64,000 nt of DNA, from assembly GCA_037441285.1 (NCBI GenBank), contig JBBISL010000005.1, forward strand, positions 28,869 to 92,868, in the 5' to 3' direction. The notes under the pieces are model-generated. The model was not told where the DNA came from. It worked only from the letters and a program-made list of their open reading frames with translations, and made no database searches. The position numbers and the translations under genes were made by a program. Below are positions 8,738 through 14,042 of the stretch, piece after piece (within the stretch, counting starts at the first letter, position 1; each line of letters opens with the position of its first letter). The DNA comes from a candidate division WOR-3 bacterium (GTDB lineage Bacteria > Hydrothermota > Tepidihabitantia > Tepidihabitantales > Tepidihabitantaceae).

Positions 8738-10552
8738 ATGAGGCGGCTTTTTTTAGCGGGCGCGTTTGGACTATCAATTTTGCTCGGCACCGTCGTGATG
8801 GCGCAGAGTTATCGGCTACCGGAATGGGTGATTGATGAAGGCGGGGTGGAGGCAAGAAGTAGCGGTTATATACTTAACGGCAGTTTTCATCAGACGACAA
8901 TCGGATATGCGACCGGCGGTAACTTTATCGCCTGGATTGGTTTCTGGCATCCCAGACCACAATGGGTCGGCGAACACGATGTTGCGGCGGTGCGGATTGT
9001 GGCACCGGTGGGCAGGGTTGATACGATGAACGATGTTACCCCGAAGGCGGAACTGGCGAACTACGGCACCGAGGCGGAAAATTTTACCGCGATATTTAAG
9101 ATTTACATCGCCGGGGGTGTGATTCCGGTCTATCAGAATTTTAAACTGGTTCATCTTGAGCCCGGTGAGTCGCGAATCGAACAGTTTGTTTCCACACGGT
9201 TGCATGGCCTTGGTCCCAACATCGCCCGCTGTTCGGTGGCACTGGCAAACGATGCCCATCGGGAAAACGACACCGTTTCGTCTGTATTTAAGGTTCTGGG
9301 CCGACCCGCATTACCCGAAGGTTGGTCTGAAGTGGAACAGATTCCGGCACCGCCGAGCGGGCGAGGTGTTAAAGATGGCGGATGGATTGCCGCGGATGAG
9401 GAAACGGGTGTGATGTATGTTTCAAAAGGGAACAAGGTGGCGGATTTTTATCTTTACGACCCGAACGCTTCTCCGGTATGGCGCGAACTTGACCCCTGGC
9501 CCAAGGGCAGTGAGGGCAAGAATCCCGGAAGGGGTTCGGTGGGTTATGTCGCGAGCGATGGTTGTGTTTATGCGACAAAAGGCAACAATACGCTTGGATT
9601 CTGGCGTTACAGTGCTTTGCTCGGCTGGGAGGCTTTGCCCAATGTGCCTTATGGTCCGAGCCATCGAAAGGTCAAAGATGGCTGTGATATGGTGTTTGTC
9701 GAAAGGGATGGACTTCCTTACATTTATCTCCTGAAAGGGACCCGTAACGAGTTTTATCGATACAACATTATCAGCGGTGTCTGGGAGGAGCTGGCACCGG
9801 CGCCCGGAACATCGAAATGGTACCGCGGTTCCTGGCTGGTTTACGACGGGGAAAATACGATTTACGCCCACAAGGCAAAGTATCATGAGTTTTATGCGTA
9901 TGATATCGCGGCGGGCGAGTGGCGGCAAACACCATTGGTGCCAATGCCAATCGCAAGCGAGCGGATGTTGACCCGGAAACGGGCAAAGGATGGCAGTTGC
10001 GGCACCTGGGCGTTTGGTTCAATCTTTGCCTTGAAAGGCGGCAACACCTGTGAGTTCTGGCGGTATATTCCGGATGGCGATTCCTGGGTGGAGATGGACA
10101 CAATCCCTTCGGTAGGTTCTTCTGGTTCTAAGAAGCGAGTGCGCAATGGTGGTGACATTGCGTTTTCCAGTGGGGAGGTTCTCTATGCGCTTAAAGGTAA
10201 CAAGACGCTGGAGTTGTGGCGGTTTGTACCCGGTGCAGAGATTGTCAATCCCGCACCACCGCAGCGGTCAGCCGTGATGGCGGAAGGAGTCAATTTATCG
10301 TCGGTGCCGGGTCTTCAGGTAATCAATTCGGTGGGGCGAGAGCAGGTCCAGGTGCGATACCAGCTGGGTGGCGCGGGGCAGGGTAGTTTGGAACTGATGG
10401 ACATTACCGGCCGGGTGATTGCGACGCAGAAAATTGTGGGTCAGGAAGGCAGTATCGTGCTGGGTGGGCACGGGATGAAGTCGGGAGTGTACTTTGTCCG
10501 GCTTCAGACCGAGACCCGCACCCTTGTACAGAAGGTGGTTTTCGCCCCTTAG
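8738..10552 (+). CDS. Kelch-like beta-propeller protein with T9SS C-terminal sorting domain
   Basis: Signal peptide present. Repeated GGWIAADEETGVMYVSKGNK / YATKGNNTLGFWRY / FALKGGNTCEFWRY blades. C-terminus GVYFVRLQTETRTLVQKVVFAP. It is paralogous to the C-terminal half of 30697-33891. Confidence 0.6.
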   Translation: MRRLFLAGAFGLSILLGTVVMAQSYRLPEWVIDEGGVEARSSGYILNGSFHQTTIGYATGGNFIAWIGFWHPRPQWVGEHDVAAVRIVAPVGRVDTMNDVTPKAELANYGTEAENFTAIFKIYIAGGVIPVYQNFKLVHLEPGESRIEQFVSTRLHGLGPNIARCSVALANDAHRENDTVSSVFKVLGRPALPEGWSEVEQIPAPPSGRGVKDGGWIAADEETGVMYVSKGNKVADFYLYDPNASPVWRELDPWPKGSEGKNPGRGSVGYVASDGCVYATKGNNTLGFWRYSALLGWEALPNVPYGPSHRKVKDGCDMVFVERDGLPYIYLLKGTRNEFYRYNIISGVWEELAPAPGTSKWYRGSWLVYDGENTIYAHKAKYHEFYAYDIAAGEWRQTPLVPMPIASERMLTRKRAKDGSCGTWAFGSIFALKGGNTCEFWRYIPDGDSWVEMDTIPSVGSSGSKKRVRNGGDIAFSSGEVLYALKGNKTLELWRFVPGAEIVNPAPPQRSAVMAEGVNLSSVPGLQVINSVGREQVQVRYQLGGAGQGSLELMDITGRVIATQKIVGQEGSIVLGGHGMKSGVYFVRLQTETRTLVQKVVFAP

Positions 10553-12210
10553 TCGAGAATCGCCTTCAGGTCTTCTTCGGGTGTTGCGATCGGCGTTAGA
10601 TTAAATTTGTCCACAAGTATCTGAACAATCCCGGGCGTGAGAAATGCGGGTAGCGACGGTCCGAGACGGATGTTTTTGATGCCGAGATAGAGCAGGGTCA
10701 AAAGCACCGCTACCGCCTTTTGTTCATACCAGGAAAGGATTAGCGAGAGCGGAAGTTCGTTTGGGTTGACTCCGAGCGACTTGCTTAAGGCGATGATAAA
10801 CTGGATTGCCGAGTAACTGTCGTTGCATTGGCCCACATCCCAGAGCCGGGGCAGACCTTCAATCGTCCCGAACTCCAGTTTGTTGAACCGGTACTTACCG
10901 CAGGCAAGGGTTAAGATAAGACATTCGTTCGGGACGAGCTGGGCGAACTGGGTGAAGTAGTTCCTGCCCGGTTTTGCACCGTCACAGCCACCAATCAGAA
11001 AGATGTGACGCAGGCGCTGCGATTGAATCAGTTCGGTTATTTCGTCCACTTTGCTTAACAGGGTGTTGCGGCCAAAGCCCACGGTAATGTAATGCTCGGC
11101 ACCCTCAGTGCCAAATCCGGGTTGGGCAAGTGCCGCTTCAATCACCGGGGAAAAGTCATCGCGGTGCACATGACGCACCCCGGGCCAGGCAACGAGTCCG
11201 GATGTAAAGATGCGGTCTTTGTAACTCTCCTGAGGCCGCTGGATACAGTTGGTGGTCATCAGAATCGCACCGGGGAAGAGCGGGAACTCCTTTTGCTGGT
11301 TCTGCCAGGCAGAGCCGTAGTTGGCCACGAGGTGTTTGTAGGCTTTAAGTTTGGGATAGCCATGAGCCGGCAGCATTTCCCCATGGGTGTAGATGTTGAT
11401 ATTTTTGTCTTTGGTCTGCTCAAGGAGGGCGGCGAGGTCACGCAGGTCATGACCGGAGACACAGATTGCTTTGCCCCGCACCGGGGTAATCCGAACCCGG
11501 GTTGGAACTGGCTCGCTATAGTTTAAGGTGTTTGCCAAATCAAGCAGTTCGGTTACGCTCAGATTGAGTGCGCCGACCGCTAAGGCGTTATTTAACAGTT
11601 CCTGGGTGTCAAACTGGTCCCGCGTCAGGTAGTCAAGTAGTTCGTGAAACCGGGCGTAGAGCCGGTCGTCTTCTTTGCCCAGAATCGCAGCATGGTCGGT
11701 ATAGGCGGCAGCGCCTTTAAGACCGAAGAGGATGAGGTCCATCAGGTCGGCTTGTTCGTCGCCAAAGCGCGCGTGCCGGCTGAGGATGCCGGCCTTTTTG
11801 CCCTGTGCGATGAGGCCATCAATATCAGGCGCCGGAGTCCAGCTGGCAGGTCCAGAAAGGGTTTCCGGTTGAACCCCTTTAGTTCGGCAGGCGTCAAGGT
11901 AAAGTTTTTGTGCCCGAGCCTTTAAATCAGCGGCACGGAACAGAAGCCCTTTCAATCTTTCCGGGTCAAAGTCCACATTGGTGATGGTGGAAAACAGCGC
12001 CTCAACCGTAAACAGGTTGATTTCGCAGTCGGTGGCACCCAAACGCCGGGCACGGTGCGCAAACTGGGCGATGCCTTCGGTCGCGTAGATTAACAGGTCC
12101 TGCAAGGTTGCGGTCGTCGGGTCTTTGCCACAGACTCCCTGAGTTGTGCAACCGGTACCGCCTTTGGTCTGTTCACATTGATAACAGAACATCTTTACTT
12201 CTTCATTCAT
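10549..12210 (-). CDS. hcp: Hybrid cluster protein (hydroxylamine reductase)
   Basis: N-terminus MFCYQCEQTKGGTGCTTQGVCGK is the canonical Hcp cysteine motif. Full length is 553 aa with the conserved C-terminal Cys/His/Glu ligands region. Confidence 0.9.
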   Translation of the reverse strand: MNEEVKMFCYQCEQTKGGTGCTTQGVCGKDPTTATLQDLLIYATEGIAQFAHRARRLGATDCEINLFTVEALFSTITNVDFDPERLKGLLFRAADLKARAQKLYLDACRTKGVQPETLSGPASWTPAPDIDGLIAQGKKAGILSRHARFGDEQADLMDLILFGLKGAAAYTDHAAILGKEDDRLYARFHELLDYLTRDQFDTQELLNNALAVGALNLSVTELLDLANTLNYSEPVPTRVRITPVRGKAICVSGHDLRDLAALLEQTKDKNINIYTHGEMLPAHGYPKLKAYKHLVANYGSAWQNQQKEFPLFPGAILMTTNCIQRPQESYKDRIFTSGLVAWPGVRHVHRDDFSPVIEAALAQPGFGTEGAEHYITVGFGRNTLLSKVDEITELIQSQRLRHIFLIGGCDGAKPGRNYFTQFAQLVPNECLILTLACGKYRFNKLEFGTIEGLPRLWDVGQCNDSYSAIQFIIALSKSLGVNPNELPLSLILSWYEQKAVAVLLTLLYLGIKNIRLGPSLPAFLTPGIVQILVDKFNLTPIATPEEDLKAILD

Positions 12211-13028
12211 TTCTCCTCCTTGATATTACCATCGATACCAAGGGTGATTTCCTTAAATGGGATGTTTTTCCCGCTGGTAGCAAGCGCGTGACGGGCAATT
12301 TGCACCAGGCCATAACAGCAGGGCACCTCCATATGTAAACAGGTTACCGAAAGGATGCTATTCTCCTGGAAGATGCTTGTCAACTTCTCTAAGTAGAACT
12401 GGGCATCGTCCAGTTTGGGACAGGCGATGAGCAGGACCTTACCGGCAAGGAATTCGGGATGAAATGCGGTGCTGGTAAAACCGGTGCAGTCAGCAGCGAG
12501 CAGGAGGTGGGCGTTGTTAAAGTATGGAGCATGGACTGGGACAAGGGTTAACTGAATGGGCCAGGTGGTGAGCTGTGATTCCGGGCGAGTGGTATCAGGT
12601 GCCGGTTTTTCTTTTGGTGTCAGACGGCGTACCTGAGTGCCCGGGCAACCACAGGCAAGCGCCGGTTTTTCGTCTGGTATCGGGATGTCGTGTTCTTTCA
12701 GGTAGGCGATTGCTTCCTCATAAAATTTCTGGGCACCGTGCTCTTTTAAGTGCTTAAGATGGGCGCGGATGGTATTGGCACCGGCGCGCACGATATTCCC
12801 CATCACCTTTCGTTCATCATAGGGTTCGGCAGGTCGTTCTTCAATGGTGAGCGCGCCCTCTGGACAGGTGCCAACACAGGCACCCAAACCATCACAAAAC
12901 AGGTCAGAAATCAGCCGTGCCTTGCCGTCAATTACCTGCAGCGCACCTTCCGGGCAGTTGGGGATACAAAAACCACAGCCCGTGCACTTTTCTTCATCAA
13001 TACGGATTATTTTTCTTGTCTTCTTCAT
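12207..13028 (-). CDS. 4Fe-4S dicluster ferredoxin-domain protein (Hcp-associated redox partner)
   Basis: Two CxxCxxCxxxCP motifs (CTGCGFCIPNCP, CDGLGACVGTCP). Its stop overlaps the hcp start by 4 nt (ATGA), indicating translational coupling. Confidence 0.7.
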   Translation of the reverse strand: MKKTRKIIRIDEEKCTGCGFCIPNCPEGALQVIDGKARLISDLFCDGLGACVGTCPEGALTIEERPAEPYDERKVMGNIVRAGANTIRAHLKHLKEHGAQKFYEEAIAYLKEHDIPIPDEKPALACGCPGTQVRRLTPKEKPAPDTTRPESQLTTWPIQLTLVPVHAPYFNNAHLLLAADCTGFTSTAFHPEFLAGKVLLIACPKLDDAQFYLEKLTSIFQENSILSVTCLHMEVPCCYGLVQIARHALATSGKNIPFKEITLGIDGNIKEEK

Positions 13029-13441
13029 TTTTCCTCCAGATTTAATTTAACTGCGGCTAAACTGGTCGTCTTCAAGTACCGGACCAGTTGGCGATTGGTT
13101 TTTAAAAGGAAATTTCCCACCGGGCAGCCACCGTGGCATATCGGGATGGCAAAAGGACAGTGGTTGACTTCGACTGTGCCAACGACCGCCTGATAGACCG
13201 CAAGCAGGCTTATTTCCTTTGCCGGTCGCGTCAGAAGATAACCGCCCATTGGTCCGGTTTTTCCCTTGACCAAACCGGCTTTTTCCAGTTGCACCAGTAC
13301 TTTTGCCAGATGGGCAGCAGAGACACCAAGGATTCGGGCAAGGCGGTTGATTGTCCAGCGTTCAGCGGGATGATGGGCAAGGATTAATGCGGCATGGAGC
13401 CCGAGGCGGGCTGCTTCCGGGGTGTTAACCAATTCTGCCAT
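13025..13441 (-). CDS. Rrf2-family transcriptional regulator (NsrR/IscR-like)
   Basis: N-terminal wHTH typical of Rrf2 (LGLHAALILAHHP...WTINRLARILGVSAAHLAKVLVQLEKAGLV). Cysteines present in the C-terminal half. It is the first gene of the Fd-hcp operon, with a 4-nt overlap to the next gene. Confidence 0.8.
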   Translation of the reverse strand: MAELVNTPEAARLGLHAALILAHHPAERWTINRLARILGVSAAHLAKVLVQLEKAGLVKGKTGPMGGYLLTRPAKEISLLAVYQAVVGTVEVNHCPFAIPICHGGCPVGNFLLKTNRQLVRYLKTTSLAAVKLNLEEK

Positions 13442-13442
13442 T

Positions 13443-13478
13443 ATGGTATAATAATACCATATTTATTGGTTTTGTCAA
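13443..13478 (-). promoter_or_regulatory. Sigma70-type promoter with overlapping 7-4-7 palindrome (candidate Rrf2 operator); near-leaderless transcript
   Basis: Minus strand reads TTGACA-16nt-TATTAT, with the ATG about 10 nt after the -10. Perfect inverted repeat ATGGTAT-AATA-ATACCAT (plus 13443-13460) overlaps the -10 and TSS. No SD is possible. Confidence 0.45.
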
Positions 13479-14042
13479 GAAAATTCTTCATTGAACTTGA
13501 TGGTGGGGCGTACGGGTAATGAGAAGCGGAAAATGTTTGCCCGATTGCCTTAACTATATTTATATTATGGGGTTCTCCCGGCGGGTTGCAAAAAATCGCC
13601 CGATTTGGGCTTATGGGGTGTTGGAAGTTGTAAATTTTAATGGAATTTTTCGGGTAAAAATTAAGAGAGTCTGCCCGGAGGTAGTAGGAATCTTACAGGA
13701 TAGTAAAGAGTTTATTTTGCCGGATTGGTTATTGAGGGGAATTTAAGGTATAACATTACAGATTTTCAATAAGATAGACTTGGGGAGGGAGTTGGAAATT
13801 GGTTGCAGGGTGAAAAGAGGAATGGTTAAATGGACGGGGCGTAAATGGGTGGTGAAGACTATCCCGGTGATTGCCCCCGGGCAGGGGAGGGTACGAAAAC
13901 CTTGCGGTTTGACAGGCGGTAACGATTGGCTACACTTGATTGATAAAGGAGAAAAGGTTGATAGACGCATCAGGTTTGCCTTCCTGGTTTAGATACCGGC
14001 GCTACGGGATTGGGGTGATGTCAGGATTTTGGTGGTAGACCG

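Follow-up and report, generated by a model that had tools for sequence, protein, structure and literature searches.

How is the hybrid cluster protein, Hcp, controlled in bacteria where its gene shares an operon with a leading regulator gene of the Rrf2 family, and where a palindrome lies on the promoter of that regulator gene? The question is raised by a stretch of 64,000 nucleotides (64 kb), hereafter the window, from a candidate division WOR-3 bacterium (assembly GCA_037441285.1, contig JBBISL010000005.1, positions 28,869 to 92,868), in which three open reading frames (ORFs) of the minus strand succeed one another in the order rrf2, frdX-type gene and hcp, each junction being an ATGA overlap of 4 nt. 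To our knowledge, the regulators of Hcp and of its ferredoxin-like companion FrdX are known for proteobacteria (NsrR, NorR and DNR) and for HcpR-bearing anaerobes, not for the large uncultured phyla. Judging from sequence comparisons, the palindrome belongs to a dyad that is very probably the binding site by which an uncharacterised branch of Rrf2 regulators shuts off its own operon.

A first reading of the DNA, referred to below as the original prediction, had proposed an autoregulatory Rrf2 operator seated on a leaderless promoter. The features concerned are the following, the coordinates being those of the window.

13443 to 13460, no strand assigned: perfect 7-4-7 inverted repeat ATGGTAT-TATT-ATACCAT (minus-strand reading), proposed core operator of the Rrf2 dimer
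13440 to 13463, no strand assigned: extended 24-bp dyad, with left half AATATGGTATTA and right half TTATACCATAAT, symmetric at 20 of 24 positions
13473 to 13478, minus strand: -35 hexamer TTGACA, from a promoter scan; almost every related operon keeps TTGAC at 16-17 nt from its -10
13451 to 13459, minus strand: extended -10 TGgTATTAT, inside the dyad, in its left half and its centre
13441 to 13025, minus strand: rrf2, Rrf2-family regulator (PF02082) of 138 aa, first cistron, ATG at 13441
13028 to 12207, minus strand: frdX-type gene, 273 aa, with an N-terminal 2x[4Fe-4S] ferredoxin domain and GGAGG at 13037-13033
12210 to 10549, minus strand: hcp, hybrid cluster protein / hydroxylamine reductase, 553 aa, with GGAGG at 12219-12215

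The dyad on the -10 element and its conservation

The make-up of the operon given in the original prediction, namely an Rrf2-family regulator, a protein with a 2x[4Fe-4S] ferredoxin domain and Hcp joined by 4-nt overlaps, is confirmed by the ORF coordinates and by profile searches. The proposed promoter is borne out as well, TTGACA (13478-13473) being separated by a 16-nt spacer from TATTAT (13456-13451), with 11 of 12 matching positions and the TG of an extended -10 at 13459-13458. The perfect 7-4-7 palindrome does lie on the -10, at 13443-13460; it is single-copy in the window and ends 1 nt before the rrf2 ATG. The 24-bp dyad built around it covers the -10 and the predicted transcription start and enters the ATG by two bases.

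The 7-4-7 palindrome by itself is not significant: eight perfect repeats of this kind occur in the window against 4.5 +/- 2.5 in Markov resamples, so that only its position and its conservation give it significance. A search of the window allowing up to three mismatches to the palindrome returned four matches, the real site included, against 1.3 expected, and thus nothing above chance. When one mismatch at most is allowed, the sites present over the 210 kb of the window and the related loci all lie at these Rrf2 promoters, and no second operator was found there, nor any second copy in the 64-kb window of this genome.

The closest homologues of the regulator lie in candidate division WOR-3 metagenome bins, from which eight loci (loci are designated here by L numbers) were retrieved at 46-96% identity. 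In 8 of these 8 the regulator heads an operon encoding Rrf2, a Fer4/PF27217 protein and Hcp, and all the WOR-3-type relatives (Rrf2 46-96% identical) show the gene order Rrf2-FrdX-Hcp and the dyad on the -10. Species-representative genomes, when scanned, brought further WOR-3 relatives together with distant loci, namely two Rrf2-FrdX loci (L020 and L021) and one Rrf2-Hcp locus (L022) from Planctomycetota and one Rrf2-FrdX locus (L019) from Myxococcales. In nearly all the related upstream regions, TTGAC(A) is followed after 16-17 nt by TATTAT or TATAAT, with GGTAT-N4-ATACC centred on the -10. Across 19 lineages, which include WOR-3, Planctomycetota, Lentisphaerae and others and in which most regulator genes head frdX and/or hcp operons, the dyad TGGTAT-N4-ATACCA (at minimum GTA-N6-TAC) keeps its -10 register in 18, i.e. 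in at least four phyla and at regulator identities of 31-96%. The original prediction had envisaged that the dyad might be missing upstream of orthologous operons, which is not so; its presence on the -10 upstream of related Rrf2 genes supports the reading as an autoregulatory Rrf2 operator.

The family consensus of the dyad consists of ATTCTGGTATTA followed by TAATACCAGAAT, of which L012, L015 and L137 carry the perfect 24-bp version, these three and L112 making up the perfect or near-perfect dyads; in L008, both arms are altered symmetrically (TAGTAT...GTACTA). In the 19 non-redundant lineages, the left arm holds 1.68 bits of information per position and the right arm 1.51, as compared with 0.47 for the spacer between -35 and -10 and 0.31 further upstream. 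No sigma-70 consensus applies downstream of the -10, which is where the right arm and its flanking AAT are found, and their conservation is taken as the real footprint. The sequence from the -35 to the dyad is not conserved, and between dyad and start codon there are from 14 to about 45 nt; L020, L021 and L022 (31-41% identity) retain GGTAT-N4-ATACC despite leaders of 35-45 nt with GGAGG. With such variable distances and with the GGAGG leaders of the Planctomycetota, the dyad travels with the promoter rather than the start codon. Of the proximal upstream 150 nt, only the promoter-dyad block has stayed intact in the four closest relatives.

The converse approach consisted in scanning metagenome contigs for the exact dyad at the DNA level, with no protein information, a procedure that gave at least 120 matches and is unsuitable for counting sites. 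It revealed at least six further loci with an Rrf2 gene directly downstream, five of which, among the matches listed, encode regulators 36-41% identical to that of the window. Two of these five (L082 and L118) are arranged as Rrf2-FrdX-cupin(-HD)-Hcp; the Lentisphaerae locus L147, arranged as Rrf2-FrdX-cupin-HD-Hcp, has a perfect dyad, and variants retaining GTA-N6-TAC in the same register are found in L148, in L149 (Phycisphaerae) and in L150.

These distant operons (L082 2756-6468; L118 1164-4353; L147 4001-7704; L150 4001-6917) are enlarged, frdX and hcp being separated by a cupin gene and often by an HD gene as well; L150 has a NIR_SIR-type reductase plus an HD protein in place of hcp. Some database entries begin with MWYINTRIP..., MWYSSTKIP... 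or MWYYYTK... (P0151, P0202 and the TTG-started ORF 1125-1595 of L118), which is the operator in translation (TGG TAT ... ACC ...). Such N-termini are an annotation artefact, gene callers having chosen an upstream start inside the dyad, and incidentally report the conservation of the operator.

The exact-dyad scan also met promoters of other genes. Those of small genes read as Phd/YefM-type antitoxins carry TGGTATAAT(T/A)ATACCA in L040, L042, L056, L060, L067, L091, L092, L100, L120, L129, L131, L140 and L146, on low-GC contigs, with antitoxin N-termini reading MPQIIPIKDLKNT... and MPKIIPINELKNT..., the N-termini being the basis of the assignment. An unrelated class of autoregulators thus appears to use a near-identical dyad embedded in the -10. 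In L027 and L116 (two sites each) and in L087, predicted genes of 63-161 aa from no obvious family start 2 nt after TGGTATTATTATACCAG (…CCAGAATG), in the leaderless-type geometry of L012, with a conserved TGTGTAC/TGTACA-like stretch upstream instead of a TTGACA -35; these are probably promoters of mobile elements. The low-GC contigs L085 (three sites), L101, L106, L124 and L142 have strong promoters that recur in the form cTTGACAa-N-TGGTATAATAATACCATAAT-SD (SD, Shine-Dalgarno); they stand before predicted genes and are possibly early promoters of phages or plasmids.

The Rrf2 regulator and its FrdX-Hcp cargo

Profile matches place the regulator in the Rrf2 superfamily (PF02082, E 6e-24 and 85.1 bits for a cut-off of 30; TIGR00738, 74.6 bits for a cut-off of 73.3). 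Its AF2 model (pLDDT 81) displays a winged helix-turn-helix and a long dimerisation helix, and the best 38 Foldseek matches in the PDB are all Rrf2 proteins, i.e. RsrR, CymR, IscR, NsrR and uncharacterised structural-genomics entries. The nearest solved relative is RsrR from Streptomyces venezuelae, ahead of IscR and NsrR by sequence profile (E 4e-16) and also best by fold (E 2e-10 with the AF2 model, 32-34% identity). Orthology with NsrR was rejected (NF008240, 39.8 bits for a cut-off of 182), and so was orthology with IscR (TIGR02010, 40.9 for 207.6; NF008110, 34.4 for 275), no isc or suf genes being found in the operon or its flanks; membership in the RirA, CymR and HypR equivalogs was likewise rejected on score.

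Among 17 diverse members, the residues that never vary include four of note: His16, Cys95, Cys102 and Cys106. The cysteines of the window protein are spaced as C95-x6-C102-x3-C106, with x4 instead of x3 in most relatives; the pattern C-x6-C-x3-5-C is present in all of the best 121 family-profile matches and the N-terminal His in 117 of these 121. In a MAFFT alignment, the four residues fall on His12, Cys90, Cys106 and Cys110 of RsrR, the cluster of which we take to be held by Cys90 and Cys110 on one subunit and by Glu8 and His12 on the other. In NsrR, the ligand spacing is C-x5-C-x5-C (Cys93, Cys99 and Cys105 in Streptomyces coelicolor). The original prediction had called for a look at the three cysteine ligands typical of NsrR and IscR: three invariant cysteines are present indeed, but their spacing, C-x6-C-x3/4-C, differs from that of NsrR and IscR, and their arrangement is RsrR-like, with an extra invariant His. 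By its residues, the regulator likely carries an Fe-S cluster, and the invariance of Cys95, Cys102, Cys106 and, from the partner subunit, His16, together with their alignment with the RsrR residues, makes these the likely ligands.

A search with the family profile gathered 2,194 clusters (at 90% identity) with E <=1e-10, a figure to be read as an upper bound as other Rrf2 proteins may pass. The taxon labels of the subfamily matches include WOR-3, Lentisphaerae, Schekmanbacteria, Phycisphaerae and a metagenome-assembled genome of Pseudomonadota. Their names are nearly all of the generic type 'Rrf2 family ...', apart from one JGI label reading 'nitric oxide-sensitive transcriptional repressor' and another that names IscR. 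In the literature consulted, no earlier description of an Rrf2-frdX-hcp system was found.

Regarding the cargo, the Hcp of the window reaches equivalog level (PF03063, 3e-149; NF003658, 2e-221 and 736 bits for a cut-off of 367; TIGR01703, 5e-213 and 708 bits for a cut-off of 361), with an N-terminus reading CYQCEQTKGGTGCTTQGVC and the N-terminal Cys motif C-x2-C-x8-C-x5-C. In the FrdX-type protein, a helical linker joins the N-terminal ferredoxin domain to a C-terminal alpha/beta domain rich in Cys (Pfam AF_0155, PF27217), for which the structural model is confident with no close solved relative. Its C-terminal part contains invariant cysteines (C126/C128, C181, C203 and C237/C238), which suggests further metal sites. 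The Fer4 + PF27217 family is very large, with >8,000 matches, and the assignment as FrdX-type follows from the architecture and from the gene context, the gene lying directly upstream of hcp here and in all the WOR-3 relatives; FrdX is presumably the electron donor to Hcp. Indirect support for the FrdX identity of the PF27217 protein comes from L149, where a PF27217 gene and hcp stand behind a textbook HcpR box, TTTGACCCAGGTCAAA, with an adjoining CRP/FNR gene.

The ferredoxin-type partner that the original prediction had put forward as a distinctive trait is thus present, but is not a novelty, frdX-hcp pairs being known in anaerobes (PMC545781, PMC1274295, PMC12915319). The name frdX was given by Rodionov and colleagues, who described hcp-frdX pairs under HcpR in delta-proteobacteria and clostridia (PMC545781, PMC1274295). 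In Clostridioides difficile, nitric oxide (NO) induces frdX and hcp, by 152- to 420-fold according to two data sets, and cells in which either gene is knocked down are NO-sensitive (PMC12915319). More generally, NO-responsive regulators, the Rrf2 protein NsrR included, have Hcp among their core targets (PMC1274295). A side observation at L149 (4001-7821, Phycisphaerae) concerns the coexistence of regulators, since a subfamily Rrf2 gene with its own GGTATAGTGGTACC dyad lies there with the CRP/FNR gene and the HcpR-type box before frdX-hcp, which amounts to two types of NO-stress regulators at one locus.

Among the known systems, NsrR is the Rrf2-family [4Fe-4S] repressor that senses NO and controls hmp, hcp-hcr and ytfE in proteobacteria, Bacillus and Streptomyces. 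The window system resembles it by the Rrf2 fold, the three C-terminal cysteines, hcp as the (here presumed) repressed target and an AT-rich palindrome of similar half-site shape, the NsrR motif being gATGyAT-N5-ATrCATc (PMC1274295) and the present one cTGGTAT-N4-ATACCAg; Streptomyces NsrR is also autoregulated (PMC5015018). It differs from NsrR by the invariant His16, the C-x6-C-x3/4-C spacing, the sequence and spacing of the operator, the position of the regulator as first cistron of the hcp operon, and a partner of Hcp that is of FrdX type instead of Hcr. Neither an NsrR operator motif nor an HcpR box was found in the window.

RsrR (Sven6563; PDB 6HSD and 6Y42) is a redox-sensing [2Fe-2S] regulator. 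It binds its own promoter region, its palindrome is of the 11-3-11 form, and its targets are genes of NAD(P)H and glutamine metabolism, not hcp (PMC5015018). The likeness lies in the aligned set of His and Cys and in a palindrome of similar size; a 7-residue segment following the first Cys of RsrR is missing from the window family, and RsrR is actinobacterial whereas the window family comes from lineages of uncultured anaerobes. Proteins of the IscR/SufR type likewise have the Rrf2 fold and a cluster site of the Cys3(+His) kind and are autoregulated through a palindrome in their own promoter, but the operator is another one and the window operon contains no isc or suf genes; a true IscR-like relative adjoining a cysteine desulfurase (L023) has a different palindrome. 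HcpR controls frdX-hcp loci in Desulfovibrio, Clostridium/Clostridioides, Thermotoga, Bacteroides and others. The cargo is the same there, i.e. Hcp with the ferredoxin-like FrdX, induced by NO and needed for NO tolerance (PMC545781, PMC1274295, PMC12915319), but HcpR is an activator of the CRP/FNR type binding upstream of or at the -35, whereas here the dyad on the -10 is of repressor type, and regulator and targets share one transcript.

The start of rrf2 and the borders of the operon

Only 9 nt separate the -10 from the rrf2 ATG. No SD precedes this ATG and no alternative in-frame start is available, a stop codon lying eight codons upstream; SD-like motifs stand before 31 of the 48 long ORFs of the window, those of frdX and hcp among them, and in an alignment of relatives the N-terminus of the Rrf2 protein, MAELFN, is conserved from Met1. 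A leaderless or near-leaderless start, as anticipated in the original prediction, is plausible for the sub-clade of the window only, in view of the missing SD, the lack of room for one, the frequency of SD motifs elsewhere in the window and the conservation from Met1 onwards. The geometry with 9 nt and no SD is common to the window, L001, L012, L018, L151 and L152, and the leaders of other relatives run from ~12 to 45 nt, some with GGAGG; leaderlessness would be a derived trait of the sub-clade. Such a start would lead to weak translation of the regulator compared with the SD-led enzymes, a sensible ratio. The three cistrons are probably coupled translationally through their ATGA overlaps.

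Upstream, the region between rrf2 and a divergent gene of 230 aa (window 13479-14042) has a length of ~600 nt, shared by L001, L151 and L152, against 71-79 nt in L009 and L012. It contains strongly conserved non-coding blocks at about 13800-13960, where a 1-nt indel argues against coding. On the minus strand, TTGAAA-17-TTAAAT (13769-13740) is a further conserved element, promoter-like in form, and a hairpin followed by a T run lies at 13612-13585. No Rfam match was obtained with the whole window or with the 600-nt intergenic region, and the consensus fold of the region of a putative small transcript is weak, with 9 pairs and no real covariation, so that no small RNA is claimed. At the other end, the hcp stop overlaps by 4 nt (TTAG, 10549-10552) that of a convergent Por_Secre_tail-type gene of 604 aa (8738 to 10552, plus strand), which leaves no space for a terminator between the two; the identical overlap of stops is found in L001-L004, L012, L151 and L152.

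A probable self-repressed stress operon and its alternatives

The explanation judged probable is that of a self-repressed stress operon, in which a cluster-bearing Rrf2 dimer on the 24-bp dyad blocks its own promoter and is released when its cluster is modified. In the resting state, the cluster-bearing dimer would bind the dyad, with TGGTAT-N4-ATACCA as core, and, since the dyad covers the -10 and the transcription start, the bound dimer would occlude RNA polymerase. Upon modification of the cluster, binding would be lost and the operon transcribed, the trigger being most likely nitrosylation by NO, considering the function of the frdX and hcp cargo, or alternatively a redox change as in RsrR. 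The products would then be made together, i.e. more regulator, the FrdX-type iron-sulfur electron carrier and Hcp to reduce NO or hydroxylamine, the rrf2 cistron being translated from a leaderless or near-leaderless 5' end and frdX and hcp from strong SD sites. With the regulator as first cistron, the circuit would form a negative autoregulatory loop, repression resuming once intact regulator accumulates.

Several observations weigh against this explanation or parts of it. The Myxococcales locus L019 has no dyad, and the left arm coincides entirely with a consensus extended -10 (TGnTAT), so that part of the conservation is that of the promoter. Most metagenome matches to the exact dyad, among the matches listed, are unrelated promoters (antitoxin genes, phage-like), and the palindrome alone is consequently not diagnostic of this Rrf2 regulator. 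The leaderless-type geometry is not found in L005, L008, L014-L017, L020 and L022. The Glu8 position of RsrR is not conserved in this family, and in L148 the family member adjoins Fur, rubrerythrin and ferritin-like genes rather than hcp. The distal promoter-like element is kept in the four closest relatives, and the binding of RsrR, the nearest solved relative, is set by the redox state of its cluster, nitrosative-stress genes not being among its targets (PMC5015018). Lastly, what the sequences show directly is the identity of the genes, the build of promoter and dyad, the deep joint conservation of the dyad and this Rrf2 subfamily, and the invariance of the Cys3/His residues; we infer DNA binding, the presence and type of the cluster, the signal and the transcription start, as well as the direction of regulation, which is deduced from the position of the operator.

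These observations feed the alternatives in different ways. Were the palindrome a mere by-product of a mirrored extended -10 (TGnTATAAT), it would be no operator and the operon would be constitutive or controlled elsewhere; the consensus nature of the left arm, the number of perfect 7-4-7 repeats in the window, not rarer than chance, and the many unrelated metagenome promoters bearing the mirrored sequence among the matches listed all agree with this. It is nevertheless very improbable, as the right arm ATACCA and the flanking AAT extend beyond the sigma-70 consensus at 1.5 bits per position, the arms of L008 have changed symmetrically, a search with the exact dyad retrieved operons whose regulators are 36-41% identical, and the dyad, which follows the promoter and not the start codon, always accompanies this Rrf2 subfamily. 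The dyad could also serve another protein encoded elsewhere, e.g. a repressor of GntR/HutC type or antitoxin type recognising GTAT...ATAC-like palindromes, all the more as TGGTATAATTATACCA is found on the own promoters of Phd/YefM-type antitoxin genes in many metagenome contigs, unrelated autoregulators thus using nearly the same sequence. This is barely credible given that the Rrf2 gene immediately downstream is the sole constant companion of the dyad in these loci, over at least four phyla, that neither antitoxin nor GntR gene occurs in the operon or its flanks, and that the length and AT-rich centre of the dyad are comparable to those of Rrf2 inverted repeats (11-3-11 for RsrR; ATGyAT-N5-ATrCAT for NsrR). 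As for the start, transcription might come from the distal element and read ~290 nt into rrf2, the operon then being not, or not only, leaderless and the proximal promoter secondary: the element persists in the four closest relatives with TTGAAA or TTGATA, 17 nt and TTAAAT, TAAAAT or TTTAAT, and the 600-nt region contains other conserved non-coding blocks. Even so, this is improbable, the short hairpin and T run (GCCCAAATCGGGCGATTTTTT) lying between the distal element and a proximal promoter that is the stronger one (11/12 with TG against 9/12) and is kept throughout the family, including in L009 and L012 with their short intergenic region; there would still be no SD before the rrf2 ATG.

The identity of the signal calls for a separate assessment, as the same autorepressor and operator could respond not to NO but to redox state or oxidants through a [2Fe-2S] cluster, as in RsrR, or to Fe-S supply, as in IscR, within a general redox or oxidative-stress response. 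The closeness of RsrR by sequence and fold, the alignment of His16 and the cysteines with its residues, its redox-dependent binding and the gene neighbourhood of L148 speak for it. Conversely, the cargo of the subfamily is mostly frdX and hcp, at times a NIR_SIR-type reductase; where examined, frdX and hcp are specifically and strongly induced by NO (PMC12915319); the regulator of L149 has as neighbours an HcpR-type gene and, before frdX-hcp, a canonical HcpR box; and identity to RsrR is just 32-34%, with no conserved Glu8. A signal other than NO is thus considered rather unlikely, and the self-repressed operon relieved by NO is retained as the preferred explanation.

What is new here is the regulator subfamily together with its operator, that is a family other than HcpR that would control frdX-hcp and that is marked by a Cys3-His site of its own and by a very strongly conserved dyad, fused to the -10. 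On a larger scale, the balance is even as to whether a large undescribed Rrf2 subfamily of uncultured anaerobes (WOR-3, Planctomycetota, Lentisphaerae, Schekmanbacteria and others), endowed with an RsrR-like Cys3-His site and an unusually invariant -10-fused operator, forms a dedicated NO- or redox-responsive frdX-hcp switch that replaces HcpR or works beside it.

Such a system extends a known regulatory theme and does not overturn the current understanding. It offers a pair of regulator and operator that lends itself to testing, the site being sharply delimited at 24 bp, candidate ligands (H16, C95, C102 and C106) that stand between the NsrR and RsrR paradigms, and a route to annotating about two thousand entries named 'Rrf2 family transcriptional regulator'. 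Besides, the related loci form a natural series in which one promoter-operator module is followed by leaders ranging from ~45 nt with SD down to essentially none, which is useful for considering the origin of leaderless genes. Hcp and FrdX being among the most strongly NO-induced genes in anaerobes, the subfamily would, if the proposal is true, represent a further independent regulatory solution for Hcp, and it may use a set of cluster ligands not seen in NsrR.

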